From NCBI GenBank assembly GCA_010015805.1, contig ML978126.1, positions 868,001 through 932,000 of the forward strand: DNA of 64,000 nucleotides. The letters run 5' to 3'. This document shows positions 1 through 28,102 of the stretch, in pieces. Position numbers and translations under genes: made by a program. The notes under the pieces are model-generated. The model was not told the DNA's origin. It saw only the letters and a list, made by a program, of their open reading frames with translations, and searched no databases. This DNA comes from Rhizodiscina lignyota. Its lineage: Eukaryota. Each line of letters opens with the position of its first letter. Within the stretch, counting starts at the first letter, position 1.

Positions 1-2028
1 AAGAGATGGATCCGTGACGTGGACGTATCCATTGGATATACGCTGTAGACTCTGGAAGACGTTGAGCAACTCTGGTCGAGCACACTTCTTGTAGTAAATT
101 CTGATGAGCGACTTCTCCAGATCGCCTCTGGTATTCGAAAGAAGGTGCTTCAGCTTGTCGACCGCCATTGTGCGTTCTCCATCCTTCAACTCTTCCACAG
201 CCGCGATTCGCTCTTCCAGCTTGCTTTGGTCCAGTAACGGCCGCCCAACCCACTTTCTCAGTAGTCGCTGTCCGAATTTGGTCTTTGTCCGATCCATAGT
301 CCAGAACAAGCTGCCCTTGGTTCTATGATCAGTCTGGTTTTGGTAAATCTCCAAACTCGTAAGCGTATTGCCGTTGAGCAGCATATGCGACCGAGCACTG
401 AACGGCTGGAAATTCTTCGTAAGGTCGAAGACATGCTCAAGACCATATTCTCTCATGTGTTCAATCATGGACGAGAGACAAATTGTGACGTGCCCAGACA
501 ACTTGTGTACTTTGTCCAAAATGTGAGCTTTTTGTTGCCCATTTTCTTCAAAATTGGTTATCTTCATCTTGTCGGCGTAGAATTTCGAGACGTTGCTGTA
601 TGATTCAGCAGCTATCGTTTTCGATTTTGCTATCCGCTCGACACGAGCCTGGTCACCAAAGACGTTGGATTTGCTGCCCGAAAGATGCTTGATGAGCTTC
701 TCAGTTGTCTTGGAGAGCTCGCCGACAATGAGAAACTCAGCAGGAGCAATGTGCAGAAGCCTAGTCTCGATATCAGACCTCATGAAACCATCTTCAAAGT
801 CGTCGTAGATGATATCTCCGGTTGCGGGCTGAACGGCAACAATGCCCACATGAACTTTCTCATCCGAACCGTATCCAAAGTTCGCATTCGATTCAGTGAG
901 ACAGAGCATGAAGCCTGTTGCAGGTGCAGCGTTCGCATTGCTGTCCCCTTGGAGGCCTTCCACATCATCAATGTAGGTTGCCTTGGTGTACACATTTGTA
1001 AGCTTCCTCACGAATGGGGCATTCCTATTATCCCCAACAGCCTTGAGTGCTGCAGTCTCCAACTGTCTCACTACACCAACTTTATGTCCAGCCTGTACCA
1101 GCCTCTTGACGTGCACATGTAGGCGATGCACTGGAATGCTGGCAGAAGCAAATCGATTCAGATGTGCTTCGGAAGGATGTTCATCGAATCGCATCTTGCC
1201 AGGTATACAGACAATACCCAACTCTTTTGCAGCAACCCTGGCATCTTCTCCAAAGAACTTGAATTTGTATCCAACCTCTACCACGAGTAATTTGTCCATG
1301 TGTGCAGTCTTTAGGTCAATCACCTGCTTCACCATGGGTGTGAGCTTGCTGGTCTTCGGCGCCTTCTTTCTGCCATTCTGTTTTGGTTGAGACTCTTTAT
1401 CTTCCTCAGCCACTTCGTCGCCTGCATCGTCTGTCTCCGAGTCGACGAGGGGGTCTCGTCGTTTCAATTCGGCAATACTGTCGGGACGACCGAGTTTCTT
1501 CACAAATTTCTCGTGTAGGCGTTGCTTCGCTTGTCTGGTTGCATCATCGTCTGGCTCTTGAGGTGTGACGTCTTCGGACACCGGCGAGCTAGAGAAGAGA
1601 TATTTTGATGTCCTCTCTGACGCCTTGACGTATGCTCCAGCTGACCCAGACTCTGTTCGTACAGGCTTTGCAGATGTAGTAAGATTTGGAGAATGCTGGG
1701 GTTGTTGTTTGGGCGGTCCGTCGTCGCATAGTCCATCCGATGTACCCTTTGCCTTCTTTCCACTCGGTTCTAAATTCTCCACATCACTACCATCATCGTC
1801 AAGAACTCTTTTGATGCCCCTTGAAGGCTTCCTCCTCGACTGTGCTGTATTCTGATTTGGCCTCTCGTATAGTGTGTCGTCATCGTCGCCATCTACCGCG
1901 CCATTCGCTTGACTTGCAGAGGTAAGGGACGTTGGCTTGGGAGCTGCAGCAGGTTTTGGGGTGAAGAAGCTAGAAATCGAGGATTGCTTCTTGCTCTGAG
2001 ACGACGGAGTCTGTGATAGAGGTGCCAT
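1..2028 (-). CDS. MSH3: DNA mismatch repair protein MutS homologue 3; 3' end runs off the window
   Basis: Not in the ORF track, consistent with no stop inside the window. Manual minus-strand translation from ATG 2028 gives [25 protein letters not shown] (PIP box QxxIxxFF). Further in it reads [13 protein letters not shown]...[32 protein letters not shown]...[60 protein letters not shown], the Msh3-type MutS domain I (GYK motif). Confidence 0.95.
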
Positions 2029-2090
2029 TGGGTCTATATTCAAGGTGGCTGAGAAGTTGGATTTGAGTTGAGAGAAGGGGAGCTCGAGAT

Positions 2091-2138
2091 CGCCGCGTCC
2101 CAAACGGCCGTCCCGACGCGGTCGCGTGAACACGTGAC
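2091..2138. promoter_or_regulatory. Cluster of CGCG (MCB-like) elements plus a CACGTG E-box upstream of MSH3
   Basis: The sequence cgccgcgtcc...gacgcggtcgcgtgaacacgtgac lies 60-110 bp upstream of the MSH3 ATG. MCB-like elements are typical of G1/S DNA-repair genes. Confidence 0.4.
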
Positions 2139-2370
2139 AGACCTAAATTAGCCATTCCAAAAGTCAAGGCGAAAAAAGTTTGAGATGAGGCAAGATGTGG
2201 ATGTTGCATGATATTTATTCTCATCAAAGATGTTAGGGTATAGTAGGTAGTATATATACAAAAATCGTCACTTTCTAAGCCGGTCTGGTATCATATCCTT
2301 AACCTAGCAGATTTCCAACCGAACCTTTCTCGATCAAATGGTATCGTACTGAAGGAAAATTGTTTTTGGA

Positions 2371-7134: not shown

Positions 7135-10100
7135 CTATCGTAATCGTCCATCAAGTACACCGTCAGCCTCTAAGCCAGGCCTTATTGCCTCGTCTAACGT
7201 CGCGAACGTACTCACACTCGCCCTTCCTTCGGCGCCCCTTTCTCCGTGCCCTCTACTGCTACCAAGGCCTCCAGCACCTTCACCCCTCTCAAGTGCAGGT
7301 GTATCCGCGTCTTCGGCTCTCCCGAACACCTCCCCATCGCCACCAAACTCGTCTCTAAATTCCGATTTCCCTTTCCACCTCTCGAAGTCCATATCCGACT
7401 CACTAACGGTCTCAACTTCCATGCCTGGCACCAGCGCTGCTGTACTACCACTCTCACTCGCCGAACCGTCGCCGCCACCAGGTACTGCGAGCCGTCCATC
7501 CTGTTTCAATGGCGACATGTATATTGCACTTTCTGAATACGCAAGAACCGGCCTCGACGCAGCAAAATCAATGTCGTCAATTTCTTCATTCCCCTCGGTG
7601 ACCGATCCTTTCCGTTTTTGTGTCGTTGTTGACATACTGAGAACCTCGGCCAATAAGTGTTGACTCTTTGCGTGGACCATCGGAGTGATGAGCTCCTTGT
7701 ACAGCGCTGGATGGCCGAATTTGACGGCCAGCCGGCTTGACGTCTTTTCTCCGCTCGGAGTGCCTGGTGACAGTTCCAGATCCGATTCTGAAGCCAAACC
7801 CCGGGTAGCCATTCCGTCTGTTCCTGTGAGGGCCGGATTTGGGGAAATGTAGCCCATTTTGCTGTCGAAGTACTTTATCAAGTACCACTTGAAACCGGCC
7901 AACAGAAAAGGCAGTGGGATCATCGCGTAGAGCATTCCCCCATTGTGCACTGCGTTCTGAGAGCCCACGCCCTGCGCGCCCACCACTAATGCGATAACAG
8001 CATTTGACAGTAGGATAGCAAAGAGGAGGCGGTTCACAAGCATGCGCCAGAATGCTCCACCGGACTCGGTCTTCGTAAAGCATATGTATTGGAGCATATA
8101 CGTCTTGAACCAGACTTCGACGCCAAGGTAGAAGGCGGTGATTGGCAAAATGATTGGTTGAAGCGTAGCAAAACAAAGTCCGACTGTAGCAGCGAAGAGA
8201 AAGTTGTTGTAGTAGTCAGCGTACTCGAACTTCTGTGGGGCGGTTAATTCGATCAACTCTCGTGGTGTCGGATGCATGTAGCGTTTCTTAAAGGTGTTCA
8301 ACACCAATGGCCACAGCTGGCTGAGATCCGTCGCCGCAGAGAGGTTATGTTGCATCTGCCAAGTGAGCCAGTAGGTGGAAACGTTGCACAAGCCTATCAT
8401 GAGTTGAGTGAACGGGTGTCCTTCCTTGAGTGCGTCCCAGACACCCTTGTCCTTCGATCCTATAACTGCCGCAGCATAGCGCCATGCAGAGGCAAATATG
8501 GAGAAGATGACAAGATTATTGAACACGAAGAAGGCGTAAAGGCGGCTCGTCAAATGGCGTTCTCTACTGGTACGAGAAGCGTCTCCAGAATGAGTAAGCA
8601 GGCGGCGGAAGATAGCCGGCAAGGCGATGTAAAAGAGCGTTTGCACGGCAGGGGCAATAATACCCTGAGCGATACCCCAGCCAGTCGGGTGAGCTTCAAG
8701 GTTCTTCTGGAATGACGACCAGACAAGTCCGAGATGGGAGAAGTCGGAGAGAAAGACTGAAGTCAAGATGTTGGGTATCACGAAGACGGCCGTGAGCAAA
8801 GACATCCAGAGGCTGTCCCAGAACAAGCGATTGCGTCGAGTTGCGCGAGTCATCGGGAGGTTCTGCCAGAGTATATCGTGTGGCTTCGGCGCGAGGGCGA
8901 TAGAGACACCTTGTCGAGCCTTTTTGCTGCTGGACTTTTCGTTTACATAGGCCACAGCATGAGCTGTCTCGATAGAGTGAAACGATGCAAAGCCATACGA
9001 TTCAGGATCTCGCTTGTCGATTGATTCGCGTGCGTCGTAAATTTGAGCTTTCAATTCGCGAATACGGTGCGTGAGATAGTCGATAGCGTCGACTTTTCCA
9101 TTTGCATCTGTCTGGACGTCCTTGTCTTTCTTTGAAGGTTTACACAGTGGCCGCTTCTCAGGAAGATGGTTTGGATCTGCCAGATATTTTGCAAGATATT
9201 TTTCGAGCTTTCGGACAGCTTCGTCATGTTCCTCGATGAGTTCTGGAAGACCCCAACGCCTGACGTTGCGGCCAATTGCTGTACGGGGCAGCTGATCTGT
9301 CGCGTCGCTTGCTGACACGATTTCTGCAATCCCAGTGTCGGTTTGCGCACCAGCGGGAATGTGTCTAAGCTGCTAATAATTAGTTGCAAGCCTCGCCAGG
9401 CCTCCCCTCTTACATGAGCACGTACCAGCAGAGTCCTTGAATGCAAACTGGACGTGTAATCCCAGCTCCTGAAGTACGCCTGCCTCAGACGGAGAACAGC
9501 TCGGTAATTCCACCAAATGAAGAAGCAGATGACCGCCTCAAAGACATATGCGCAAGCTACAAACGCCCAAAACTTCTCGCCGAATATGTATTGCGGTGTA
9601 AGCTTCAACAGGGTGGCGATGTTGCTGTACTGTTTGTAGACTTGGTGGCCTCCAACCAGATTAATGGGAATGATGACCGCACAGCCAAAGATTGTAACAA
9701 CAATGAAGATGTTCCGAATCATTCGAAGGAAACGGAGGAACACCACGGCATCCAGGCCGATCTTATCGACAAGTTCAGGCTCTTTTACTGTTATGGCTCT
9801 GATCCAACCAAGTGGCTGCCTCTCCAGTCGCTGAGGTGCATGTTTTTCATCGGCAGATTTCGCTCGAGGGGCATAGATATGACCGAATCGAGGACGGAGG
9901 AAGCAGAAGACCACAAATAGACCTGCTGACACGGCAAAGGACCAGATGAGGGCGGCGTAGATCGAGTTTGCTTGGACCTAAGAATTGTCAGAAAGTCTGA
10001 GATTGGGAATTGCTCTGCACTCCGTAGCATTCCCGAGGGTGACAAAATAATTGAATCACATGAAACTTGAATGAGTGCAGCAGTGTTCAACGTTGGCAAG

Positions 10101-10995: not shown

Positions 10996-13022
10996 TCACA
11001 GTTTACTGCCGCTCGCCAAGGCCTTGATAACCTCACTTGCAGCTCTCTGTCCCGAAGTGACAGCACCTTCTAAATAACCCTTCCACTCGTACGCAAGTTC
11101 GCCTCCTCCAAAATGCAGGTCTCCAAAAGGCTCCCTGAGCGCCGAGCCGTACTGGTTGAGCAACCCAGGCCCCATCGCCGAAGTTGGTGCCCCGCCGATG
11201 AAGTCCTCTTTCGTCCACTCCACGCAATTGACCTCTAGTACGTCTCTTGCCTTGGAGGCCAGCTGAGGTCCAACAAGAGTTGCAAGATGCTCAATAATCG
11301 CTTCCTCGCGAGCAAGCTCACTCAACGCATGCCATTCCGAGGCGCGACGACCGGCGATGAAAAGCGCCAGGCTGTACTGCCTCGTCGCCTCGTCGCTGGT
11401 TTCCCAGCTAAAGCAGATGGGTCCGAGCATCGAGGTGAATTTCCCGACTAGACCAGCGTGCCTCCACCATGGAGATGCGTAAGTGAGAACCATTTTTGCA
11501 TATATACCAGGCTTCGTGCGCGAGACAAGTGCTTTCTTTGCGCGAGGAAGGGGCGGAGAGAAGCGAATGTTGGCGTAAGTATTCGTAGGGATCGCGAGTA
11601 CTACCTTTTTCGCAATGAAAGTTTGTCCCGTTACGGTGGTGACGGTGGATTTTTGTCCGTATTGTGTGATGGATCCAACAGGACTATGGATGATGACACT
11701 CCCTGGTTCCATCGCAGCAGCAAGCGCAACAGCAATCGACGATGTTCCTGGAATAAAAATTTCATCAGAATACTGACACGAGGGAAGCAGTCACTCCCGC
11801 AGTACTCACCTTTCTTGAGCTTTAACGACTGGGCGCCATACTCTCCCTCCGTGACACAGCTAACCCAGCCACCACAGGACTTGATGTAGTCAAAGAAATA
11901 GTGGGCGCCGGTTTCATGTGGCTCTCGTCCGACGATTGCAGAAGTCAAGTGGCTGCACTGTGCTCGAATAGCAGCGTCGTCATATAGGCCCTTCTCTATC
12001 ATCCAATCCGCCACAGACACATCCTCATTCTGTGGGAAATCGTCCCACTTGCGGATATCGCGCTGCTCAGCGGCTTCTGCGATCGTTGCGTAGAGCTGTT
12101 GCACTTTTGCGGCCACGTCATCCGCTGAGGCCTGAATGGTCGTTAGCTGTGGAACGCTTCATTTTCCTATGGCAGCGGAAAAGTTGATGGTTACCTGGTC
12201 CTGGTGGCTGTCTGAACTCCTGACGGCCTGGCCATCAATGCATTGAAAGACCTCATCGCCGTCAGTATATTGCTCTGCAGTCTCCAAACCGAATTTCTCT
12301 GTCAGGGCATAGACGGCTGGCTGTGTCCATTTGTTTATCCACGTCGCTCCCATGTCTATAACTCCTGGCCCACTCTTTAGAGGTTGTGACCGACTTCGCC
12401 CGCCAATTCGATGCCTGGCTTCCAGTAGGACAGTTTTGATCCCTGCTTGCTGCAGTTCATAAGCTGCTGCGAGACCTGAGAAACCCCCACCAACCACAAT
12501 TGCATCCACTTCGACGGATGGGACAGGGCGAGCCACTGCTGAAGCACCTCCTGGCGGAAGATGCCCGTCTGCTTCTGTCCACGGCCTGGAAAGCCCACCA
12601 ACACTGGCTACAGCTTCAACCTCAATCTTGGCTGCTGGAAACGCTAGTTTGGCAACGGGAATGAGCGTAGTCAGAGGTCTATATGTGACACCATACTCCT
12701 CGGTGAGAAGTGCAATGACAGGTTTGACCAGATCTGCACCCGCGTCCAAGGTCCAGTCAACAGCATAGAAGCGAAGCTGTACGATATCACGTGGAGATGT
12801 ACCTGCAGCGCGAAGGACATCGACCACGTTTGCAATTGCTTGCTTCACCTGCCCGCCAAAGGTGTCGGGGAAGCTGCCGTCTTTGAATTGACCAAGTTGA
12901 CCTGATGTGAGGACTAAACGACCAGCACCGTTTATCGATACACCGTGGGAGTACCATCCTGGATCTGAAATTGATGTGCCATTGACGAACGAGGTATATG
13001 GATGGACGTCTCGAGGTGCCAT
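10996..13022 (-). CDS. Fusion protein: N-terminal Rid/YjgF (endoribonuclease L-PSP-like) domain + flavin-containing amine oxidase, with C-terminal PTS1 (SKL); exons 12195-13022, 11810-12131, 10996-11747
   Basis: Rid motifs WYSHGV..LVLTSGQLG..QVKQAIANV..L.AAG....DIVQLRFY..IEVEAVA. These are followed in the same exon by the FAD-binding VDAIVVGGGFSGLAAA..LLEARHRIGGR and DMGATWIN, and later by EPFGDLHFGGGE..WKGYLEGAVTSGQRAA. The protein ends ASGSKL. Introns 12132-12194 and 11748-11809 are canonical. Confidence 0.92.
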
Positions 13023-13447: not shown

Positions 13448-15183
13448 ATGGCTAATGCAGCTCCTTTGGATCTGATGCTGGCGAACCGGTTTCCAAGACG
13501 ACACTCCCAGCTCGCGTACGATCTTGTCGATGGCCATGAGGAGTCACATCAGGGTCGACATCGCAGTTCTCGCGCCCTGCGACCCAATTACCCACGTGTA
13601 AGAACAGGATGTCTAACCTGCCGCATTCGCAAGAAGAAGTGCGACGAGATCAAGCCGCGGTGTGCAGGTTGTCGCCGGAACCAAGTTTACTGCGAATGGC
13701 CGTGTGCTACGAACGTCAAGCCCTCGAAAATGGATTCCCAAGAGTATCTCCCTGACTCTGAGGACCTGCATCTTCGATCTTCTTCACCAGTAATTTCACA
13801 CACCGCCGGAGTGACAGGATTGAGAATTTCTTGGGATTTACCACTACGTGAAGATCTGCCCCCGCTCTGCAAAGGCGAAGTAGGAAATTTCTGGTCTCTG
13901 TTCAACCCACGTGTTGGGACCTGGACTGGCTCAGACCGACCCTGCTCGCTGACACCAGCATCTCTTCTGCTATTCAGCCACTACCTGAGCGAGACTGGGG
14001 TCTTACTGGCTATGGTACCATTTCACAAAAATCCCTTTATTACGCACATTGTCCCAATGGCCTGCACGGACGACTTGTTAATGCACAGCGTGCTGGCATT
14101 AAGTGGAGCACACCTAGCGTTCAAACAAGATCTGGATGCGTCCATTCAGAGTGCTACTTTGCGCCACTATTCAGAAGTCATTCGGGGTCTGCGAACTGAG
14201 GTTGGCAGTCTTCACATGAAAGATGCTCGAGGCACTCTAAGACTGCTGCTCATTTCCATCATGGTGTGCCACTACGAGGTCAATGTTCTGATTCGACATC
14301 TTCAATGCTCAAGCTAATCAGCGCACAGGTCCTATCAGGAGACATGACTGGAACTACCTTTAAACACTTGCGTGCAAGCCGGGAACTTATTCTTCAGCTC
14401 CTTTCGCAGCCTGATGGACTTACGGCCGGCTTTCTCGCATTTGAAACTGATGCACTTGGTCTCTGCCTCGAGCTTTATGCTTACATAGTGATTATGAACT
14501 CACTCTCACCCTACGGCAGTGTGGCCACTCGGACCATGCCGTATGATACATTCGTCCTGTCGCTGGGGACGTTAAGCTCATATTCGACCTTTGGCACGAT
14601 GTTTGGTGGAATACACGGGCTCTTTGAGCTTATTCCACAAGTTGCGTTGTTAGCCTCTCAGAGGCTGGTGGAAGAAGAATCAGGAATGACCAAGCCAGAT
14701 CCAGAGACGGTTGCAATGCATGATTCTCTCGAAGCTCGTATTCGAAATTGGGATCTCTCCCCAGATCCATCAGAGGATACTACGGAGTGGGAAGAGCGAA
14801 GCACTGCGGGCGAAGTGCTCCGACATGCGTTATACATCTATCTCTCTACTGCGCTAGCCGGATCACTCATATCCGACCCTGATATCTTATCGTTCATCCA
14901 ATTCCATATCGATGCTATCCTCAACATGGCCGGTTCTCTGGCAGAGTCTCATTACGCATGTACCCTCATGTGGCCACTACTAATCGCTGGCTCATGCATG
15001 GTCAGAGAATCACAGCGTACTGAGCTTGTCACGAGGCTTCGGGCATCTAGATATCGCATGAAGCATGTGTTTTCGGCTTGCGACCTTCTGCAGAAGCTAT
15101 GGGAAAGCCATGATCCGCAAGCGTATGGGCCCTATGGACTCTACATGATGGAGAGACATGACTATTGCATACCAATTATCTAG
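13448..15183 (+). CDS. Zn2Cys6 transcription factor with a C-terminal fungal-specific (DUF3468/Fungal_trans_2-type) domain; exons 13448-14278, 14329-15183
   Basis: Binuclear cluster RVRTGCLTCRIRKKKCDEIKPRCAGCRRNQVYCEWP, plus NPF..HIVPMA..DDLLMHSVLALSGAHL and LMWPLLIAGSC. Intron 14279-14328 (GTCAAT..GCTAAT..CAG). The first in-frame ATG is at 13448; the ORF-track start at 13391 is TTG. Confidence 0.92.
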
Positions 15184-15241: not shown

Positions 15242-16726
15242 TCAAAGCCTATTCTTTCTCAGGGTCCGAATAACCTCTTGCGCTCCCCTCACTCCAGACC
15301 GAACGGCGCCTTCCATATAACCTTTCCATACCAGCGCAGTCTCGGTCCCCACGAAATGCAGCTTCTCAAAAGGCTCACGAATTACTTTGCCCGCATCGCT
15401 AGTCAACAAGCCTGGCATCATAACCGGCGACGGAGCGCCGAGCGCCCATGGATCCTTGGCCCACTCCTTTTCGATGATATTAATTGGGGCTGGAACCTCT
15501 ACGCCCTTCTCTCTTGCAGTTCTTCCGAAAACAGCATCGAATTGCTCTTCCACCTGTCTTCGGCGCTCAGCGGCAGACCATTTCGACCACTCTCTTCCAC
15601 TGTCGCCAACAATGAAGCAAGTGATGCTATACTGCTTATCAGCCTCGACGCAAGTGTCCCTCGTAAAGGATATCGGTCCCTTCGCGGACGTCATGAGCCC
15701 GCTCAGTCCGGCTTCACGCCACCAAGGCACCCCGAAAACGAAGATTGTCTTCGCGTAGTAGCCCAGCGCTGTATTCTCTGCAAGCGCCTGCTTGGCTACC
15801 GGCAGTGGCGGCTCAAAGATTACGGAAGGCAAATTGGACGTTGGAATAGAAAGAATGACTCTCTGTGCATGAAAGACCGGTCCAGAACCTTCCGTCTCGA
15901 CCTTACAGCCCTGGGATGCTTCTTGCGAAACCCGGGAGACGGCTGTTGAGAGTCGAAGGGAGCCATGGGGTAGCAGAGCTGCCAGCCGCACTGAGAATTG
16001 CTGGTTACCTGCTCACGTCATTAAGCAGGGTCTCGGGGTAAATAGACGAATAGGATGTGAGAAGCTCCTACCTTGGCGATTTCTTAAATATTGACCACCA
16101 TGCTTCAGATCTGACGACATGTTCTCCAGTCCTGTCCCACTTTGGATGTAATTCAACATGAACAAGACACTGACTTCATCCGCCTCGACTCCAAGGAGTG
16201 CAGCACTCAACGAACTCGCTGCTTGCGCCGCAACATCACCTCCGGCGTCCGCGGCGAACTTGCTGAAAGTGACCGAGTCTAACGACGCAGCGTTTGGACT
16301 CAAGTGTGGCTTTTCCAGGTGTCCTTCAGCGACTCGGTGATTTATACAATCAAAGAGGGCTCCCAATGCCTCCAAATCTTCTGGTGTCGATGGTTCTCGA
16401 GAACCATAAGGGTGTGTCACGACCTCTCCGCCCGGTCCCTGTGACAGGCTGAGACCTGAAGCTCTTTGCTTGACTAGATCGAACCCGAATTCGCGAGCTA
16501 ACTTGTACATCTCGCTTTGGTTGCTGTCGTTGATCCAGGCGGCACCCACATCGACTTTTCCGCCTCTGCCGGATGAGTCGAGGCTCAAGGTCTTGCCGCC
16601 AACTCTGTCTCTTGCTTCAAGTACGAGAACAGATAACCCTGCTCGATAGATGTCGACAGCTGCGCGTAGACCAGAGAGTCCGGCGCCGACGACGATAACA
16701 TCAACTGATGCGGAATTTGTCGCCAT
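15242..16726 (-). CDS. Flavin-containing amine oxidase (MAO family); exons 16072-16726, 15242-16008; ends in PTS1-like NRL
   Basis: Motifs VDVIVVGAGLSGLRAA..VLEARDRVGGKT, DVGAAWIND, GYYAKTIF..PWWR..GLSG and EPFEKLHFVGTETALVWKGYMEGAVRSGVRGA. Intron 16009-16071. Confidence 0.93.
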
Positions 16727-16951
16727 TGTGGTTTGTTAAACAACGATGGCTACTACCAAGGAGAATCAGGCCATCCGTAAACTTCAACCGCTACTGAGAA
16801 CCTCCGTCAAAGGCGCCATATATCTTGAATGGTCCATCCGCCATCAGTTCAAGGTCGAGCAAAGGCAACCGCGGTCGTGCTGCAATCGATTTTGGGTTTT
16901 GATCCGAGTTCAGACTTCAGCCCCACAGCGAGGTGGGTCTGGGCGGAATTT

Positions 16952-16987: not shown

Positions 16988-17609
16988 TGTGCATTAGCGC
17001 CCGCCACAAAGTCTGGGGCCCCGCGCTCCTTCACAAAACTCTGCACGGTTGCACAGACAACAGTGTTACGCCCGAAGTGTTCTTGCCTCCTCGATCGCTA
17101 GTTTTGTGAGGCACAGTATCTTGACCATGCTGTTTATCTACCCGCTCGATGCGTTAGTCCTAGGGCGAAGCGCTTCAGTCGGCATGAGGCCTTCGATGTG
17201 CCCTGATATGCGTAATAGCATGCGGGCCGGTAGAGTTTGGCTTCTGTTCTTCAATTTAATTCGATGTTTCATGCTCAGACTTGAGTCCAGATGTTAGGAA
17301 ATCTACTTCGGAATTGTAGCTCATGTGATTTTCCTTTATCTCATCCATTGCCCAAATTTATGACACTGCATCCTTTGCTCCGATGTAGGTTTTGGATTTG
17401 ACGATCCACGATGAACTTGCCGCGGCCAGCCAGGTCACCACCTTCTCTTCTCGCGGCTCCAAACCCCCTAAGAACTCTTCTAATCGGCTAATATGAAGCC
17501 TTAACCCCCCCTCGACTCGATTATTGATTAGCTGCTCTTCCACCTGCCAGTGCTTTATTGTCTCTTCTTCTCCTTGTGCAATTTCACATTTCACAAATAA
17601 CAAGAAGCA

Positions 17610-19492
17610 ATGTTCCCCGTTCAAACGAATACCTCCGGTTCTGGGAGTAGGTTACGGATTTTCTTATCCTCCACGCAATCATTTCAACTGAAACCTGAAC
17701 CGTCAGACTTTCCCGAGAAAGCAGAGATCCCCTCACCAGTAACCCGGAGCATCGAAGAGGATAACAATGTTGAGCTCGGACTAGAAATTCCTGCAAATGG
17801 CCAAGGACAAATGAAGAAAGATCTGGGGGCTCTGACGCTTCTAGCCATTTGCTTCAACATCTGCAACAGTTGGCCGGGCCTCGCCGGCAGCGTTCAAATC
17901 GCTCTACTCCAAGGTGGTCCAGCAACACTTCTCTACGGCATGATCATCAGTGCCAGTCTTTACATCTCTATCGCTTTGACTATGGCGGAGCTCGCGAGTG
18001 TGTACCCGACTGCTGGAGGTCAATATCACTTCGTATCCATCCTTACGCCGAAATCTCTGAATCGTGGTTTATCCTACATCTGCGGTCTACTCACAAATTT
18101 TTCCTGGATTGCCATCGGAGCCTCCGTCCTGATGATCCCAAGCATGCAAATCACTGCTCTCGTGTCTCTTTACCGCCCGACATATGTCGTTAAGGCTTGG
18201 CACGAATTCTTAATCTACGAAGGATTTGGCCTCGTGATTCTCTTGTATAACCTTTTCGCAGTGAAGAAGCTCCCAAGAACTCACGACGTTGGATGTAAGT
18301 CATCTCTTCTCATACGACTCGCAAAAGATGGGACAGCGTACTAACAACTTGTGAATTCGACTTCAGTCGTATTGACCCTCACGCTGTTTGTCGCTACAAC
18401 CCTGACATTTGTCATTCGCTCCTCTCCCAAGGCAAACAACGACTTCGTTTGGGCGACCTTCACAAACTTCACCGGCTGGCCAGACGGTGTCTGCTTCCTC
18501 ACATCTCTTCTAACTACTTGCTTTATCTTCGCCGGCTTGGATGCATCGTTGCACATGGCGGAAGAAGCCCCGAATCCACGAGTGTCGGTTCCAAGAGCCA
18601 GTGTCACCGCGATTGGAATTGGTTTTGTAACAGCCTTTGCATATGGCATTGTACTGCTGTATAGCATCCCAGATTTCGAGTCGATTGTTGCGATCGAAGG
18701 GTGAGTCTCACCGTGTGTCGCGACGTTCCATGGACTAGCTGATCGGATCCCTTAGCTATTTGCCCCTCGAAATATCCCGCCAGGGAATGCGCTCCGACCT
18801 TGCAGCTGCTATCACCCAGGCGGCTGGTGTCGTCATGACATTCTTTGTGATGAACGCAGTGCTTGAGACTGCCTCTCGGATCACCTGGGCGCTAGCTCGC
18901 GACAATGCATTGATATTCCCCGGCACATTCAGCAGTATTCATAGCACTCTGGGCGTTCCTATTTGGTCGATAATACTAGACTGGGCAATCCTGTCTCTGC
19001 TGGGATTAGTCTTTCTTGCATCGACAACAGGTGAGTTGGCAAAACTGCCAAAGATGCACCGAAGCTTTCTGACTTCCACTGACAACTTGTTAAAATAGCG
19101 TTCAATGCTCTTCTCGGATCTTGCGTGGTGTTGCAGCAGCTCTCATTCCTTATGCCCACAGTTCTCCTCATGTACCAGAGAAGATCGGAAGTCTTCTTAC
19201 CACGGAACAGGGCTTTCCGTCTACCCAATTGGTTTGGATGGATTGTCAATGCTTGGGTCGTCGTTATGTCCGCGCTTCTTGTCATTTTCTTCTTGCTGCC
19301 GCCTTTTCTGCCCGTCACTGGGAGTAACATGAGTCGGTATCCCTCCTACAGCTTGAGGTGGACTTTCAACTGACAGAAGAGACAGATTACAACGTCGTCA
19401 TCTTGGGAATCGCTGCCATTCTGGGGATTGTGAACTGGTTCGCCCACGCTAAGAACCACTATCAAGGTCCGAGAATATTCTACCACGACTGA
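17610..19492 (+). CDS. APC-superfamily amino acid/amine permease, ACT family (GABA/choline permease-like); exons 17610-18294, 18367-18700, 18756-19030, 19099-19332, 19386-19492
   Basis: Motifs FNICNSW, GGPATLLYG, MAELASVYPTAGGQYHFV, F.NFTGWPDG, GLDASLHMAEE, ASRITWALARDNAL and GSNMNY..WF.HAKNHYQGP. Four canonical introns restore a single frame. Confidence 0.93.
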
Positions 19493-19836: not shown

Positions 19837-22800
19837 CTATACGAACATACCTTTGTTCCTAGCATGACCAGCAAAGCCGCGCTCAACCTTACCAAGCTTC
19901 TGGGAAAAATCTATTTGACGAAGTTCTTCCCACATAATTTCATCAAGTTCTTGACCACACCTAAAAAGTCCTAGCTGTGAGTTGCACCACAGGTCCGGAA
20001 GAATGGATGACACCTCAGACCACCATTCGTCCCAAAACTCGTCCAGTGTGCCATCGAAAGCGCTGCGGCGCTGAGAGTATGCCATCATTATGAGCTGAAG
20101 TTGCTCAAGGTAATAACGATCTTCTTCTTGAATCTCAGCAACTTCTCCTTCCGTCGGACAAAGCAGAATTCCACGTTGGTCATTGAGGTCGCAACATGAA
20201 TGTTTCATGCCTAAACGCTCAAACATTTCAATGCGGCAAGCTTCTTCAAAAAAGACTTCCATCTCCGGGCCGTCATACCCACACTGTTTGCACCAACGAG
20301 TGAGGATTGCTCTTCTAAAGCTCCATCCTACTAGAAAATACCCAGGATCTGTACTTTTCAGGACCTTGTGAATTGGAAGACACCCGCTCGAGGAGCAAAA
20401 ACAGCTGCACCCATCACGTTGAAGTTTTCCGGTGGCTGAAGCAGCAGTGGCCAATGTAGCACCATAATATTCTTCTTCCTTGTTCCACATAGATGCCCAC
20501 GCTTTTCCCATGTAGAATAGAGCTGATGGAGCATAAGGCCTCGGAAAGGAGGCGGATGCGCCAATTTGCACAAGGCAAGATATTAAACGCCAGTCCCCAA
20601 ACTGCACGGATCCCAATAGAGAACATTCGCGAAGCAGCACCGTGCGGCCATCCGGTAACGGTATATCCACAGCTGACGGGGAGAACCCAACGCTCGAAAG
20701 TGCCCGCGCCATCGCCACAGAGTCTTTAGCAAGATGAAAGACCGTAGCTTGGGGCCCAGGGAAGAGGGCAGGAGGTACAGGAATACTTCTGTCCATCAGA
20801 GCCTCGTATACTGGGAGAGCCCAGATGTCGAGAATTGGCTCAGTATGGAGCCCTAAATTATCTTGATCTGCTTGCGTGAGGTTGTCTGCAGCCAGGTCCC
20901 GAAGTCGATGCCGCCGATTAGCAATAGCTGCTGCGAAGCAAGATGCGAATTGGTCTCCTATACTGTCGAAAAAGCTTGGATGAAAGCGAGAGAACATCGC
21001 GCAATCATGTTCAAGGAGAATCGTGAAAGAGTCTATATCTCTAGTTGTGTGGGCAAGACTGAGAGCAGAAAAGCCATTCGCGCCTGCTTCAATAAGAAGT
21101 TTCGTGCCTTCTGGCCAACCGAGCGCACAACACAGAGGAGTCGAGAAGCTATGAGCTAGTTCTGTTTGACCGGCATCCCAACCTTCGGAGAGCAGTCTCT
21201 TTACGTCGGACTTCGAGTTCCGGACGCACGCATTCTGAAGATAGCTCAGATTCCAACCTGAATGTGTCAGAAACGTTCGTCATGCTACATAACACAACTT
21301 ACATTCAAGAATCTCGAGAAAGGACCTTAACATTGAGCAATGATGCCCGACTCGGTCTAAATGGGTATCTCTAGATACTTCCATAACTATGCATTCGTTT
21401 TCGATTAGAGCTGACTCTATCCAGTGAGCATTACTCGGGTCGACCACCAAAGTCATACGACGGTAGTAAATCGCAAAATCAAGGGCTGTCCCGGGCCATC
21501 CAAATATAAACGGGGTGACAGCGTTCATGTCGACACCAGCATGGAGAAGCAATTTCACTGTATGCTGAAAACTACTGAGCATATCGGCGTTAGTATCAGC
21601 CTTACAAAACCAAGCGACTTTTACGAGTTCCTATGTCCAATTAGAGGGGGGCTTTTTGGCAAAATCAGTCACAATTCAACCACTCACATGAAGCAGAGTG
21701 CTTCCATTTTCATCTTTGCCTGTAGCGGATGCCATCCCTGTTTCAAAACATCTCACGAGGTCTTGAGCTAGATTGTTGAAGCGTTGCTTAAGCTCTCGTT
21801 TCTTTTCACTAGATGGTTCAATGAAGAATGGTTTATAAAATTCCCGGAAAATGGCAAATGCTGGTGAAGTTTCTCTGGAGACTGTGGCATAGTAGTTTAT
21901 TGGTCGTGCTAAGGAGAAGCCTCCTGCGCCAGAAGTGGCACCAAATGTCATTTCTAGCGTGCGGGAGAGGATTGGCAACAGGCACAGACGGATCCCATAT
22001 TCCCATGTGTGCATTGATGCTGTGCGGAATGGACAAGATGTATCGTGTTTCCATTTCCGAATAGTGGAGGACCAAAATGGCCATTTTGCCCAGTATTTTG
22101 ATTGCGTATGAGGAATACAGTTGCAAAATCGACTCCGTAATCCTAATTTTCGTCGGCCGGAGTTGGGGCTTGCTTCTGCGCACTGCTCCCATTGCTCTGC
22201 AAGGTAAGAGGGCTTTGAAAGCAGATGTAATCTTAGTCTTACGATCTCAGCTTGCATATCGGACGCAGCAAGAAGAAGCGCCGAATTACCCTGCTCCGAC
22301 AGCGTTGCTACGTTGTCAATCTTGGTAGCTATCGAAGATTGACCGGCTTCGAAAGTGGCGATCGAACTTCGCTCAAACTTCTGAAGGCTATCCACAAGCT
22401 TGATGTTTCCGTCTGTGATATGATCGTGGAGCTGATTAACTTCTTGCTTAGTGTCTGCGATCAGGGAATGGGTTCCGTCGAGCTTTGTCTCCAGCCGTGC
22501 ACTGTGCTGTTGAACACGGTCGTTGAATCCATCCCTCGTTGATGTGATTTCTGCCGTTATCCTAGTTAAGCCGGCTTCGGTCGAATTGCCAACGGATGAT
22601 ACGGCATGTTCAATGGATTGATGCCCAGCGGTTGTATTGGCGCCAACCATGTCCAGAGTTGTATTGGTGCAAGAGGTGAGCAGGATGTGGGTGGTGGTTT
22701 TGGTTTCGTGGATTCGCTCAAACAGACGGGATATTTCCTCCTCCTTCTTGACACTGATGACCTCCCGCCATCGCTTGCGCAGAAATGCATCGTTCGACTG

Positions 22801-23085
22801 AGTCTGTAAAGGCTCTAGTATAGACTTCAGCTCATCTAATAAATCTTTCATCTTGTTGCACTGTGCCTGCAAATCAGGAACATTGGAACCAGAGCCGGCG
22901 GGAATCCCAGCAATCTCAGTTTCGAGTCTTGCGAAAAGCCGCGAGGCATCTTCCAGATCAGCGACAGCAGCTTCGACTCTCTGTGGTGCGCGTTTGAGTT
23001 TAGAGAGATATTTTACAGCCTTGCAACAGCTGGCGAAGAGGTCCTGAGCTGCGGCGACACCTCCGAGAACCTCGAGACCAGACAT
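19837..23085 (-). CDS. Protein with N-terminal HeLo-like (fungal N-terminal domain of STAND proteins) domain and ankyrin-like repeats; exons 21688-23085, 21303-21630, 19837-21257
   Basis: The N-terminus MSGLEVLGGVAAAQDLF...LKRAPQRVEAAVADL is typical of this domain. Ankyrin-like segments are KDENGSTLLH, KLLLHAGVDMNA and TPLCCALGWPEGTKLLIEAGAN. The C-terminus has a CSCFCSSSGCLP / LGMKHSCC / EIQEED block. Introns 21631-21687 and 21258-21302 keep the frame open. Confidence 0.75.
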
Positions 23086-23336
23086 CGTGAAGTGAGAGTA
23101 ACAAGACTGCAGAGAGATATTATTCGGCTCAGTCTAGAGAGTATTGATTGATCACATAAGGAAGATGAAAGAGAAGGAAGAGAGATCTGAAGCATTACCT
23201 TTCAGAGAGAAGGCTGTGTCGCAATTCAGCCTTGCGGCTCTGCCGGGCTGCACATCGCTACGTTGAGACTGTTAATTGGGTGGCCCCTGCAAGTTGCAGT
23301 AGCGCACGCGATACATAAGGACGATACTTTCAGCCC

Positions 23337-25067: not shown

Positions 25068-28000
25068 ATGTCCTCTAGCACCAATCTCGACGTGCCTCCC
25101 GCTCCGCAACAGCTCGAAGAAAGCATCGTCCAAGATGAAGAGGATGAGAGCGGCCCGAACGCAGATGCTTTACGGCTGCTCTCACGGTCACCGCATCCTT
25201 ACGCCTTTCATCGCTCTAGTAGCGCAGAGTTTGATGCATCCGCAGCACCAGATCGCAATAACTCCCCGTCACAAACCGATTCGACTTCCGAAGCTCGACT
25301 TGCCCCGAAAGACTACCATAATAGCTATCTGAAACCCTCACTAAGTCGAGTTCGAACCAATGGAAGCTCTGCGACCCTCAAAACTCCCAGTGAAAGCGGC
25401 ACCGAGGCCGACGACGAAAGCTACGGTTATGGCTTCGTGCGCGCCCTTCCAGCGCCTCCACTGCGTCCGAACAAAGGCCTTCGCCGCTCTGTGGATCATA
25501 GTAGCTTTGATGGGGCGCGTAGGAGTAGCGAAGACATAAGAGCAGAAGCTAGTCCGTGGCTCACACCATCACAATTGCTGGACGAGGATGAGAGAGCGCG
25601 GCATGGCAGCGACTACTTCACAAGTTCAAGGGGTGTCAGGAAGAGAGGAACGGCTAAACCAAGGAAAGGCGCGGATACCACTAGTGCGGAAGAAGAAGCG
25701 AGAGTTGCAAGGGAGAGGATACGCAAGAAGAAGAGAGCAGAGCTCATACGGCGGTCAGTGGAGATGATGCTGCTGGGGATCATTGGTTCTGCGGTGATGG
25801 GACAACCAACTGTGAAGCCAGCAGTTATATTATGGCAACGAGGTACGCACATCCAGCACATGTTCTCATGGTCCTTTTTCTGAATGCCCATGCCTCAGAA
25901 CTCGCAAGTGGAACGGTGGTCTTGTGGGTACTGTTCGCTCTTTACCCTATTCGACTGCTCTGGTACAACTATCGAAGGGCCCATGGCAAAACAAAAAGCA
26001 TCTTCTCGTCAATACGAATACCGGTTGCTTTCGATCCCGCGCCCCTCTTCTATCCAACAACAATACCGGTGCTGGTGGCTGCGTCACTCATACCCTCTTC
26101 GACTAAATATCTCTTGCCAAATATTGTTCTGTCGCTGGCTGCACTTCCTCTGCAAGTTATACCTCTTGCATACGTCTCTGGCATCCGGAATATGTCCCAT
26201 TGGTTCATCAGTCTCGTGCCACTCATGATTTCTCAGAACACCGCAATTCCATCAAAATTAGCGGCGACAATGCCTTACAATCTCAAGGCTTCTCCTGATG
26301 ACTCTGTTTCTCCAGAAATCATCGCCTCTCTCTACGCTCTTCATCATGCGCTTCTTGGCCCCTTACAGTTCGTCACGAGTACGAGTTTGCTGCCATCGGA
26401 ATTGCACCTTCTATCAATTGCTCTCATAAACTTGTTGCTATTCTCCAAATCACCACAGGCGCTTATCCTTGATATACTACTGTGGTTTGGAGGAGTCACA
26501 CTTTTCGTCACATGTGGACATGTGATCAGATGGGGTATCGCACTGGCCCGAATTCCTAAGTGGAGGCTGAGACGAGCTGGAAGGATTGTTGGGATGGGAT
26601 CCTCTTTCATTTCAGCTTTGAATGATGCACTCATCGCCAAAAACAAGCATCTTAAAGATCACAGAGATTCCTACCATTCATCAGACACAGAACCCGAGGA
26701 CGATGTTGCACAACCAAGGAATGGCCTCTCCAAGCTTGACGCACTCAAGGCAGAGCTCTTGAGCGCACTGAAAACTAATCTCCTCTCAGGAGAAGAAGAA
26801 GGGGAGGTGAAATCAGCTGTTGAATCTTCAGGAATTGGAACAACGACTCTTGATCCGACTGCGGCGGCAAGCCTGAGAAAGCGGAGGAATACCCTCCCAA
26901 TCCTCAGTAGACAGAATTCGAAGGAAGAACCTCCGAGTAGGTCTAATCAAGTCCGCCGAAGGCGCAAGCGCTCGTCAATTGTGGAATATTTCCTCTCACT
27001 CACCCCAGAACAAGCTGCAGTTCGAAAGTGGTATTACGCTGGATACGTCTATGCGATGATCCTAGCGATTATTCTGGGACCGATTCGCTCTTTGGTTGCA
27101 TCCTATGCGCTCAACGGCTACGAACCTTTTGGATGGGCCATTAGCTACCTCTTCGGCAACGTACCCGCTCTTCGGTTTGCAACTGTGCAGCATGACCTTG
27201 AATCTTGGATACCACTGCCGCCACTGGGAGATGCATCTTCATCTACTCACATTCCGTTTCCGCGTGGAATTGTCGATATGCTGCTCACCAATCTTGGGCT
27301 CTCTCCGGGACCGGCGACAACCCGCTTGCTCCTTACCCTTTACTGTGGACTTGTCATGTCCGTTGGCATCATCACCGTTCTGCTTCTTTCGCCTTTTATA
27401 GAAGTAGACACAAGGCGCAAGGTCTTCCATTTCACTATGGTGGCTCTCTTGCTGCCGGCCATCGCGGTCGACCCTTGCTTCATTTCTCTTGCACTTGCCC
27501 TCGTCCTGGCCATCTTTCTCCTACTGGAGTTGCTCCGTGCAAGCCAACTTCCTCCGTTGAGCAAACCAATTGCGATCTTTTTAGCGCCATACGTCGATGG
27601 TCGCGATCTCAGAGGCCCAGTGGTCGTATCTCACATTTTTCTCCTTATCGGCTGTGCGATACCCCTATGGCTGTCTATGGCTGGCGTCGAACGAGCGCCT
27701 ACGAGTGACGAGGATGCGTGGAAGGGCTGGAGTACGCAAGAGCGAAACCTCAGCATGCTCTCTGGCGTCATTTGTGTCGGCCTCGGCGATGCTTTCGCAA
27801 GTCTCGTTGGTCGACGCTTCGGTCGGCACAAGTGGCCATGGGCAGGTGGCAAGAGTTTAGAAGGCAGCGCGGCCTTCGCTACCGCCGTCGTCGGTGGGCT
27901 TATCATCGGCAAAGGGCTGCTTAACCTGGTTCTGGAAGGCCGGTTGATCGTGAACGATGCCGGTGGAGCTGTTTTCACTATCACGAAAGCGGCAATTGCA

Positions 28001-28102
28001 GGCTCTGGCGCGAGCCTGATGGAGGCGGTCTTGACAGGTGGTAATGATAATGTGATTGTGCCGGTGGTACTGTGGTTGCTTGTCAGGGCTGTTGGGCTGT
28101 GA
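25068..28102 (+). CDS. SEC59: Dolichol kinase (exons 25068-25842, 25899-28102)
   Basis: Motifs EVDTRRKVFHF, VDGRDLRGPVVVSHIFLLIGCAIPLWL, GVICVGLGDAFASLVGRRFGRHKW..GKSLEGS and GGNDNVIVP. Intron 25843-25898. Confidence 0.9.

Follow-up and report, generated by a model that had tools for sequence, protein, structure and literature searches.

A Rid domain without the catalytic arginine, fused to a monoamine oxidase-type flavoenzyme in filamentous ascomycetes: a candidate module for imine clearance

The DNA shown above belongs to a window of 64,000 nucleotides (nt), the whole stretch that was analysed, on contig ML978126.1 of the fungus Rhizodiscina lignyota, and the gene treated here encodes what is almost certainly a genuine two-domain protein: an N-terminal domain of the Rid (YjgF/YER057c/UK114) superfamily, joined in a single polypeptide of 633 residues to a flavin amine oxidase of the monoamine oxidase (MAO) type. 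By alignment, the Rid domain carries a threonine, Thr118, where RidA has Arg105; it is predicted to assemble into the usual Rid trimer, and the protein ends in a putative peroxisomal targeting signal. Taking sequence, models and analogy together, the likeliest role of the Rid part would be that of a tethered trimer which clears the oxidase's carboxylate-free imine inside peroxisomes; we give this reading a little less than an even chance.

The gene opens with an ATG at 13020–13022, the first codon of exon 1, and its three exons (Table 1) of 828, 322 and 749 nt sum to 1,899 nt, that is, 633 codons; the spliced model is the protein annotated as “putative mao-A [Rhizodiscina lignyota]” (P0002), with 100% identity across exon 1. 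An earlier reading made from the letters alone (the sequence-only reading) had placed the Rid domain and the GxGxxG motif of the oxidase in one uninterrupted exon, 12195–13022, and had argued from this that the fusion is no artefact of gene modelling. A single open frame was found there and the exon limits proved correct; besides the one exon, both domains occur together in 35 of the 100 homologue clusters listed, and the interval it had marked, 12400–13022, takes in the Rid domain (12600–12998), the linker and the motif binding flavin adenine dinucleotide (FAD). The only methionines of exon 1 are M1 and M224, the latter downstream of GxGxxG, so a product without Rid but with its dinucleotide fold intact has no ATG from which to begin. 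The DNA contig set of a single sequencing run, probably that of the source assembly, spans this stretch of the window without joints.

Residues 22–140 match the Pfam profile PF01042 (Ribonuc_L-PSP) with an E-value of 2.1e-15 and 57.2 bits, the gathering score being 27.3, which places them within the Rid/YjgF/YER057c/UK114 superfamily. Against three RidA proteins of known structure (1qu9, E. coli YjgF; 2uyj, TdcF; 3vcz, Vibrio RidA) phmmer sets the RidA segment P-A/T-R105-S opposite P116-L117-T118-T119, so that Thr118 occupies the Arg105 column, and the same register, F102-P-A-R105-S against R115-P116-L117-T118-T119, was obtained by MAFFT with E. coli RidA (NC_000913, K-12). The canonical arginine is thus absent, as had been proposed from the peptide Y-R-P-L-T-T-L-I-P-V-A-K-L-A-F-P..IEVEA, which is present, its RPLT encoded at 12669–12680. 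Two other RidA residues are kept, Tyr17 as Tyr24 and Glu120 as Glu134 (phmmer). The arginine of “YRP” was considered as a shifted Arg105 and rejected: Arg115 aligns with RidA Phe102, three residues upstream, and at the two positions that the sequence-only reading had named for comparison, Arg105 and Glu120, the sequence alignments leave the former without arginine and the latter with its glutamate. Among relatives that do have arginine in the Arg105 column, three of four rows (P0195 twice, P0244) also have R or K at −3, which marks the upstream basic residue as a feature of the clade and not as a relocated Arg105.

How strongly these positions are held was judged from 32 full-length fusions of the 35 clusters, the shorter P0023, P0030 and P0032 being left out. 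Within the cleft, E134 and W90 are found in 32/32, G41 in 31/32, and T118 and T119 each in 29/32; R stands at position 115 in 23 fusions, K in six, and Q, H and T in one each. T39, W90, T118 and P122 are commoner in fusions than in stand-alone relatives, W at position 90 occurring in 41 of 56 fusion rows versus 9 of 77 stand-alone rows.

An AlphaFold2 (AF2) model of the full-length protein has a mean per-residue confidence (pLDDT) of 84.2 and a pTM of 0.75; residues 149–167 fall below a pLDDT of 50, which suggests two folded domains on a flexible tether. The Rid domain modelled alone (pLDDT 93) is predicted to adopt the chorismate-mutase-like β-α-β-α-β-β fold and superimposes on E. coli YjgF (1qu9; VIA-align) with Z 20.9 and a root-mean-square deviation of 1.1 Å over 125 of 127 residues, 194 chains in all reaching Z of at least 8. 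That Rid domains are trimers, and that this one may oligomerise the enzyme, had been part of the sequence-only reading, and the prediction agrees: three copies of residues 1–146 gave an interface score (ipSAE) of 0.86 in all three runs, versus 0.00 for the best of three controls, with at least 95% of contacts shared between runs and a partner pLDDT of at least 81. Of proteins solved as same-chain pairs, 21 of 30 attained the mark applied to such scores, and of those solved as single chains none of 23; among eukaryotic proteins 17 of 29 attained it, and just one of the seven lacking an older solved relative. The Rid domains are therefore predicted to form the usual trimer with inter-subunit clefts, a pass that may reflect likeness to solved Rid trimers. 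In the predicted assembly, residues 117–124 of one copy contact 38–41, 134 and 136 of the next; Thr118 meets S40/G41 of the neighbouring copy in the inter-subunit cleft, and where RidA has its active site, Thr118/Thr119 of one chain look across to Ser40/Gly41/Glu134 of the adjacent chain. W90 lies in the predicted interface, and R115 is absent from the named interface residues.

The second domain is a member of the MAO/putrescine-oxidase branch of PF01593 (Amino_oxidase) by profile, by its GxGxxG FAD fold and by overall fold. The profile match begins at residue 181 and scores 77 bits on exon 1 and 123 bits (2.1e-35) on exon 3, with a cutoff of 19.8. Against the PDB, phmmer gave 8p84 at 1.9e-56 and also 4i58, 1gos and 2yg7; MAO, cyclohexylamine oxidase and putrescine oxidase were matched with E-values of 1e-45 to 1e-56, L-amino-acid oxidases with just 1e-14 to 1e-15. 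Foldseek placed the domain at a TM score of 0.94 (target-normalised) and 31% identity on the MAO of a Thermoanaerobacterales bacterium (8p84), which has also been solved with putrescine, and found further matches to human MAO A/B, putrescine oxidase and cyclohexylamine oxidase. An oxidase of this type, far from the amino-acid oxidases, should release an imine without α-carboxylate, as the sequence-only reading had supposed. The linker is poorly conserved apart from its RPW motif: mean pairwise identity among the 32 fusions drops from 49% in the Rid domain to 27% in the linker and rises to 57% in the oxidase. A canonical type 1 peroxisomal targeting signal (PTS1) is a C-terminal [SAC]-[KRH]-[LM] tripeptide, and the protein of the window has -SKL before its stop codon; among the 32 fusions eight have a tail that fits the strict motif and 23 one that fits a relaxed form.

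Assigning the Rid domain to a subfamily requires some care. The RidA subfamily model TIGR00004 (NCBIfam) gives it 29.6 bits, far under the cutoff of 106.25, so it is no canonical RidA; of the residues that distinguish RidA it lacks Arg105 and keeps the equivalents of Tyr17 and Glu120. Niehaus et al. (PMC4433059) give Trp at the Arg105 site for Rid4 and Rid7, a variable residue for Rid5 and Rid6, and Ser for about 10% of RidA proteins. E. coli YjgH has W in this column (MAFFT), and a Rid4/Rid7 (YjgH-like) type was rejected, Thr118 standing in place of their Trp. The likening of the domain to Rid4–7 in the sequence-only reading was hence right as to the missing arginine and too broad as to the subfamily, Rid4 and Rid7 carrying Trp and the fusion clade Thr or Ser.

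A HMMER search with residues 1–146 against 1.84 billion representatives returned 1533 matches at E ≤ 0.001, 71 of them at E ≤ 1e-10. The Rid domains of the 150 best matches together with P0002 make 194 rows, whose Arg105 column holds S in 73, T in 31, A in 22 and a gap in 18; R is found in four of the 176 non-gap rows and W in one, and S, T, A, C, Q and M are among the residues seen across the clade. A clade profile built from 70 sequences matches 5v4f best among solved entries (3.5e-33, 117.6 bits), the next entry reaching 98 bits and E. coli YjgF 89.6 bits; 5v4f, which we take to be the Yersinia pestis protein Y3550, labelled “Rid5-6” in PMC7221256, has Asn at the Arg105 site and Phe for Tyr17 (phmmer). 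The variable residue at that site and the match to 5v4f are indirect hints of a Rid5 or Rid6 type. In a FastTree phylogeny of 198 Rid domains (135 columns, poorly resolved) 39 fusion domains form one clade with support 99, and all 55 fusion domains group with 31 single-domain rows (support 97); E. coli RidA falls far outside. Among the relatives are bacterial proteins with two, three or six tandem Rid domains (P0107, P0108, P0117 and others), mostly with Ser in the Arg105 column, for example a threefold “RidA family protein” of Lysinibacter sp. HNR; in proteins of this kind Arg-less Rid units would be joined covalently into trimers. P0187 is an alpha/beta-hydrolase (PF00561) with a C-terminal Rid domain of the fusion clade and Ile in that column.

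The fusion, judged by its relatives, is ancient and has been kept in filamentous ascomycetes. In a collection of 5.8 billion proteins, the 35 clusters combining PF01042 with PF01593 (553–665 residues) among the 100 listed relatives of exon 1 span the Dothideomycetes, Eurotiomycetes, Sordariomycetes and Leotiomycetes, all within Pezizomycotina; every fusion with a named source is from a fungus, and a second paralogue occurs in some genomes. When 25 longer representative matches were scanned, 22 had Rid plus Amino_oxidase, many of these being open reading frame (ORF) fragments that cross the junction, and the other three were two tandem Rid proteins and one alpha/beta-hydrolase–Rid fusion. In a quick IQ-TREE phylogeny of 61 oxidase domains (of 68 rows; P0023, P0032, P0038, P0047, P0048 and P0111, with oxidase parts below 400 residues, and P0099 were dropped) every basal fungal branch bears a Rid domain, and two Rid-less groups, of 11 and four rows, are nested among the Rid-bearing branches, a history that fits one gain of Rid and two losses. 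The Rid-less fungal relatives retain the motif “SRPWTxADGHL” that follows the Rid domain, and many have, judged by eye, a hydrophobic signal-like N-terminus in its place. A PTS1-like tripeptide ends none of 17 Rid-less forms versus 23 of 32 fusions, so the presence of Rid tracks a presumed intracellular location, and the sequences suggest that a peroxisomal form with Rid twice gave rise to a secreted form without it. The closest Rid-less homologues (P0039–P0055) come from Verticillium, Colletotrichum, Stachybotrys, Gaeumannomyces and others.

Table 1. Positions in the window of the fusion gene, its parts and the genes beside it
Feature	Position	Strand	Basis or detail
Rid–amine oxidase fusion gene, whole (633 residues + stop)	10996..13022	-	Sequence reading
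Exons of the fusion gene	13022-12195, 12131-11810, 11747-10999	-	Splice sites read from sequence
Exon 1: 276 uninterrupted codons; Rid domain, linker and FAD-binding start of oxidase	12195..13022	-	ORF and Pfam
Rid domain (YjgF/YER057c/UK114, PF01042), residues 9-141	12600..12998	-	Pfam, AF2 model, structure comparison
Tyr24 codon, equivalent of RidA Tyr17	12951..12953	-	Y in 27/32 fusions
Trp90 codon, opposite RidA Leu81, in predicted trimer interface	12753..12755	-	Invariant in 32 aligned fusions
Arg115 codon (“YRP” Arg), opposite RidA Phe102, 3 residues before the Arg105 position	12678..12680	-	Alignments
Thr118 codon, RidA Arg105 position	12669..12671	-	T 29, S 2, V 1 among 32 fusions
Glu134 codon, equivalent of RidA Glu120	12621..12623	-	Invariant, 32/32 fusions
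Linker, residues 142-169, predicted disordered	12516..12599	-	pLDDT and identity
GGGFSG dinucleotide-binding motif, residues 178-183	12474..12491	-	G178, G180, F181, S182, G183 invariant
Exons 2 and 3 (intron 11748-11809), remaining MAO-type oxidase domain	10999..12131	-	PF01593 2.1e-35 on exon 3; PDB phmmer; Foldseek
C-terminal Ser-Lys-Leu, putative PTS1 peroxisomal signal	10999..11007	-	-SKL, then stop codon
Zn2Cys6 transcription factor, divergent from fusion	13448..15183	+	PF00172 and PF11951
Second flavin amine oxidase, Rid-less	15242..16735	-	28-41% identity to the oxidase part of the fusion
APC-family permease, choline/polyamine-transporter-like	17601..19098	+	PF13520

The genes beside the fusion, between 13448 and 19098 (Table 1), look like a conserved module for amine uptake and amine oxidation. 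Relatives of the permease carry names such as choline transport protein or amino acid/polyamine transporter; the locus tags of permease and fusion follow directly on one another in at least six fungi (Fonsecaea multimorphosa, F. erecta, Cladophialophora psammophila, Exophiala aquamarina, Fusarium nematophilum and Zasmidium cellare), and for a further six species the contigs that bear them match in length. The type of permease may serve as a hint to the substrate of the oxidase. In some Penicillium and Aspergillus gene models (P0296, P0306, P0314, P0316, P0317) the permease is merged with a Fungal_trans_2 domain. Elsewhere in the window are a MutS-family gene that runs past the window start (1–2142, reverse strand), an RSN1/PHM7-type calcium-dependent channel gene (7135–9977, reverse strand), and long open frames of 480, 485 and 805 residues at 19837–23133 (reverse strand) and 25685–28102 (forward strand), for which no Pfam match was found at E ≤ 1e-4.

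If the Rid domain acts on the product of its own oxidase, the pathway might run as follows. The neighbouring permease of choline/polyamine type would import an amine, with the genes under the control of the neighbouring Zn2Cys6 factor, and the oxidase would turn the amine into an imine without α-carboxylate. The tethered Rid trimer would then bind this imine, its enamine or a cyclised form in a pocket where Thr118, Trp90 and Glu134 take the place of the arginine, and would speed its hydrolysis to aldehyde and ammonia; the reactive imine would thereby be kept from the peroxisome matrix and nitrogen released, and the same trimer might also gather three oxidase units. The stricter chemical claim, that the Arg-less domain is a true hydrolase of imines without α-carboxylate (aldimines, or cyclic imines from mono- or diamines) with Thr118, Trp90 and Glu134 replacing Arg105, is possible and, in our estimate, rather doubtful.

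Several observations weigh against imine clearance by the Rid domain. Simple aldimines are quick to hydrolyse unaided, so that a catalyst may not be needed. The second amine oxidase of the same cluster has no Rid domain, and the secreted Rid-less descendants evidently work without one. Basic residues are held close by, R35 in 31/32 fusions and R or K at 115 in 29/32, and could in principle provide a carboxylate-binding charge. No Arg-less Rid is reported to have a measured activity, and the one assayed, Rid7 of S. enterica, did not hydrolyse imino acids (PMC4433059). Bacterial loci around stand-alone relatives of the clade, 34 in all (mostly Alphaproteobacteria, found with the single query P0182), were scanned with a hidden Markov model of the fungal oxidase at E ≤ 1e-5, and none showed a MAO-type ORF within 6 kb or less; by Pfam their neighbours are heterogeneous (TctC, AtzH-like, SDR, amidohydrolase, Rieske), with no amine oxidase among 40 chosen of 101 flanking ORFs from 12 of the 34 loci. 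Nor was an oxidase present in the two plasmid contexts looked at among 197 tblastn records (Shinella HZN7 pShin-01 and a Pseudosulfitobacter plasmid). The link to an oxidase would thus belong to the fungal fusion and not to the Arg-less clade at large, and the hope that the fusion might serve as a Rosetta stone for Arg-less Rid proteins, raised by the sequence-only reading, fails for the closest bacterial stand-alone relatives sampled and is weakened as a whole. At several alphaproteobacterial loci (L010 6399–7244, L008 6407–6796) the stand-alone Rid gene has TctC-family receptor genes on one side and an AtzH-like gene on the other, a context that recurs.

The main alternative, which we consider unlikely, though less so than the others, is that the Rid domain is a non-catalytic module for assembly or stability, serving a multi-oxidase particle, folding, or the import of a folded oligomer into peroxisomes, and that loss of the arginine records a loss of catalysis. 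The large margin of the predicted trimer over its controls and the flexible linker of the model agree with it, as does the Rid-less, secreted type of the descendants, for which such assembly would not be needed; moreover, by the alignments what is gone is precisely the single residue on which RidA activity has been shown to depend (PMC4433059). Yet the cleft is conserved beyond what a scaffold needs, down to E134, G41, T118/T119 and the fusion-specific W90, and the equivalents of Glu120 and Tyr17 are retained. Well behind this comes a role in small-molecule binding or in some action beyond the product of the oxidase, for example as a regulatory ligand site, in protection from aldehyde or H2O2, or like a chaperone. 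Proteins of the Rid fold bind varied small ligands, the K-12 record annotates E. coli RidA as “enamine/imine deaminase, redox-regulated chaperone”, and Arg-less Rids are described as lacking a known function (PMC4433059). No specific evidence speaks for this fungal domain having such a role, however, and that the domain has kept strictly to one oxidase clade, covalently attached, for a long stretch of evolution points to a part in the chemistry of that enzyme.

Slightly less probable still is a carboxylate-dependent deaminase of imino acids or enamines in which R115 or R35 takes over from Arg105 and the substrate of the oxidase itself has a carboxylate, for instance an omega-amino acid. Such an enzyme would account for the basic residues held at both positions and would go well with an adjoining permease of the amino-acid/polyamine family. 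R115, however, precedes the strand, opposite Phe102, is not among the named residues of the predicted interface, gives way to Q, H or T in some fusions and has its counterpart in relatives that keep Arg105, and the oxidase is much nearer to MAO and putrescine oxidases than to amino-acid oxidases. That the fusion is an annotation artefact, or that its Rid part goes unexpressed with transcription or translation starting downstream, is very improbable, given one open exon with both domains and no ATG from the end of the Rid domain to the FAD motif, a junction that is continuous in 22 of the 25 longer proteins, annotation in four fungal classes, and the conservation of the Rid domain among fusions.

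The fusion offers one defined protein on which both the function of an Arg-less Rid and the action of Rid on MAO imines can be tested, with natural Rid-less relatives as controls; it bears on the use of amines as nitrogen source by fungi and on the claim that proteins of the Rid1–7 type are confined to prokaryotes. If the domain does prove to be an Arg-less hydrolase, this would be the first chemistry assigned to an Arg-less Rid clade, non-RidA Rid proteins would exist and work in eukaryotes, and MAO-type oxidases would require the removal of imines within peroxisomes. Public annotation already shows the fusion, which accords with the known partnership of Rid proteins with oxidases; no paper describing a fungal Rid–amine oxidase fusion was found in literature searches whose coverage of subscription journals is incomplete.

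Compared with RidA, YjgF, TdcF and UK114, the domain shares the common fold, a predicted trimer with a cleft at the interface, and the equivalents of Tyr17 and Glu120, and it differs in Thr118 for Arg105, in its low TIGR00004 score, in belonging to a separate clade and in its covalent oxidase. Like Rid4–Rid7 and 5v4f, its best solved match, it lacks arginine at the Arg105 position and keeps the glutamate; unlike Rid4 and Rid7 (PMC4433059) it has Thr or Ser there instead of Trp, and unlike 5v4f it has Thr118 for Asn and Tyr24 for Phe. Four of the eight Rid subfamilies are Arg-less and without known function (PMC4433059), and Rid1–7 are described as prokaryotic (PMC5619798), whereas the clade treated here is fungal and fused.

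Pairing of a flavin oxidase with a Rid partner that deals with its imine is known from several systems. RidA, Rid2 and Rid3 hydrolyse imino acids made by FAD amino-acid oxidases, and in bacteria the genes of Rid proteins and of FAD amine oxidases are found in clusters (PMC4433059, PMC5619798); to this type belong Chlamydomonas LAO1 with its partners LAO2/RIDA (PMC10805672), the bacterial lao-cccA-ridA gene cluster (PMC5053998), DauA with Rid2/3 and the clusters of amine oxidase and Rid (PMC5619798, PMC4433059). In these, separate Arg-bearing polypeptides act on α-imino acids, whereas the fusion is a single chain, Arg-less and of MAO type. Mammalian UK114 is partly peroxisomal, and its action on MAO imines “will need to be established” (PMC5979572). 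A further case is the Rid6 gene in the nicotine cluster of Agrobacterium tumefaciens S33, an Arg-less Rid beside amine-oxidising flavoenzymes, for which removal of an imine or enamine without α-carboxylate has been predicted (PMC7688666); the idea of an Arg-less Rid that clears a carboxylate-free imine has thus been proposed already, there for a bacterial protein from a separate gene, with the role a prediction, and the likeness to the fusion drawn here is one of description. On the oxidase side, MAO-N of Aspergillus niger, human MAO A/B, putrescine oxidase, cyclohexylamine oxidase and 8p84 share family and fold with the fusion, and all are without an N-terminal Rid domain. MAO-N, itself a peroxisomal enzyme, is a distant relative of the fusion oxidase (E 1e-25 over a partial alignment).

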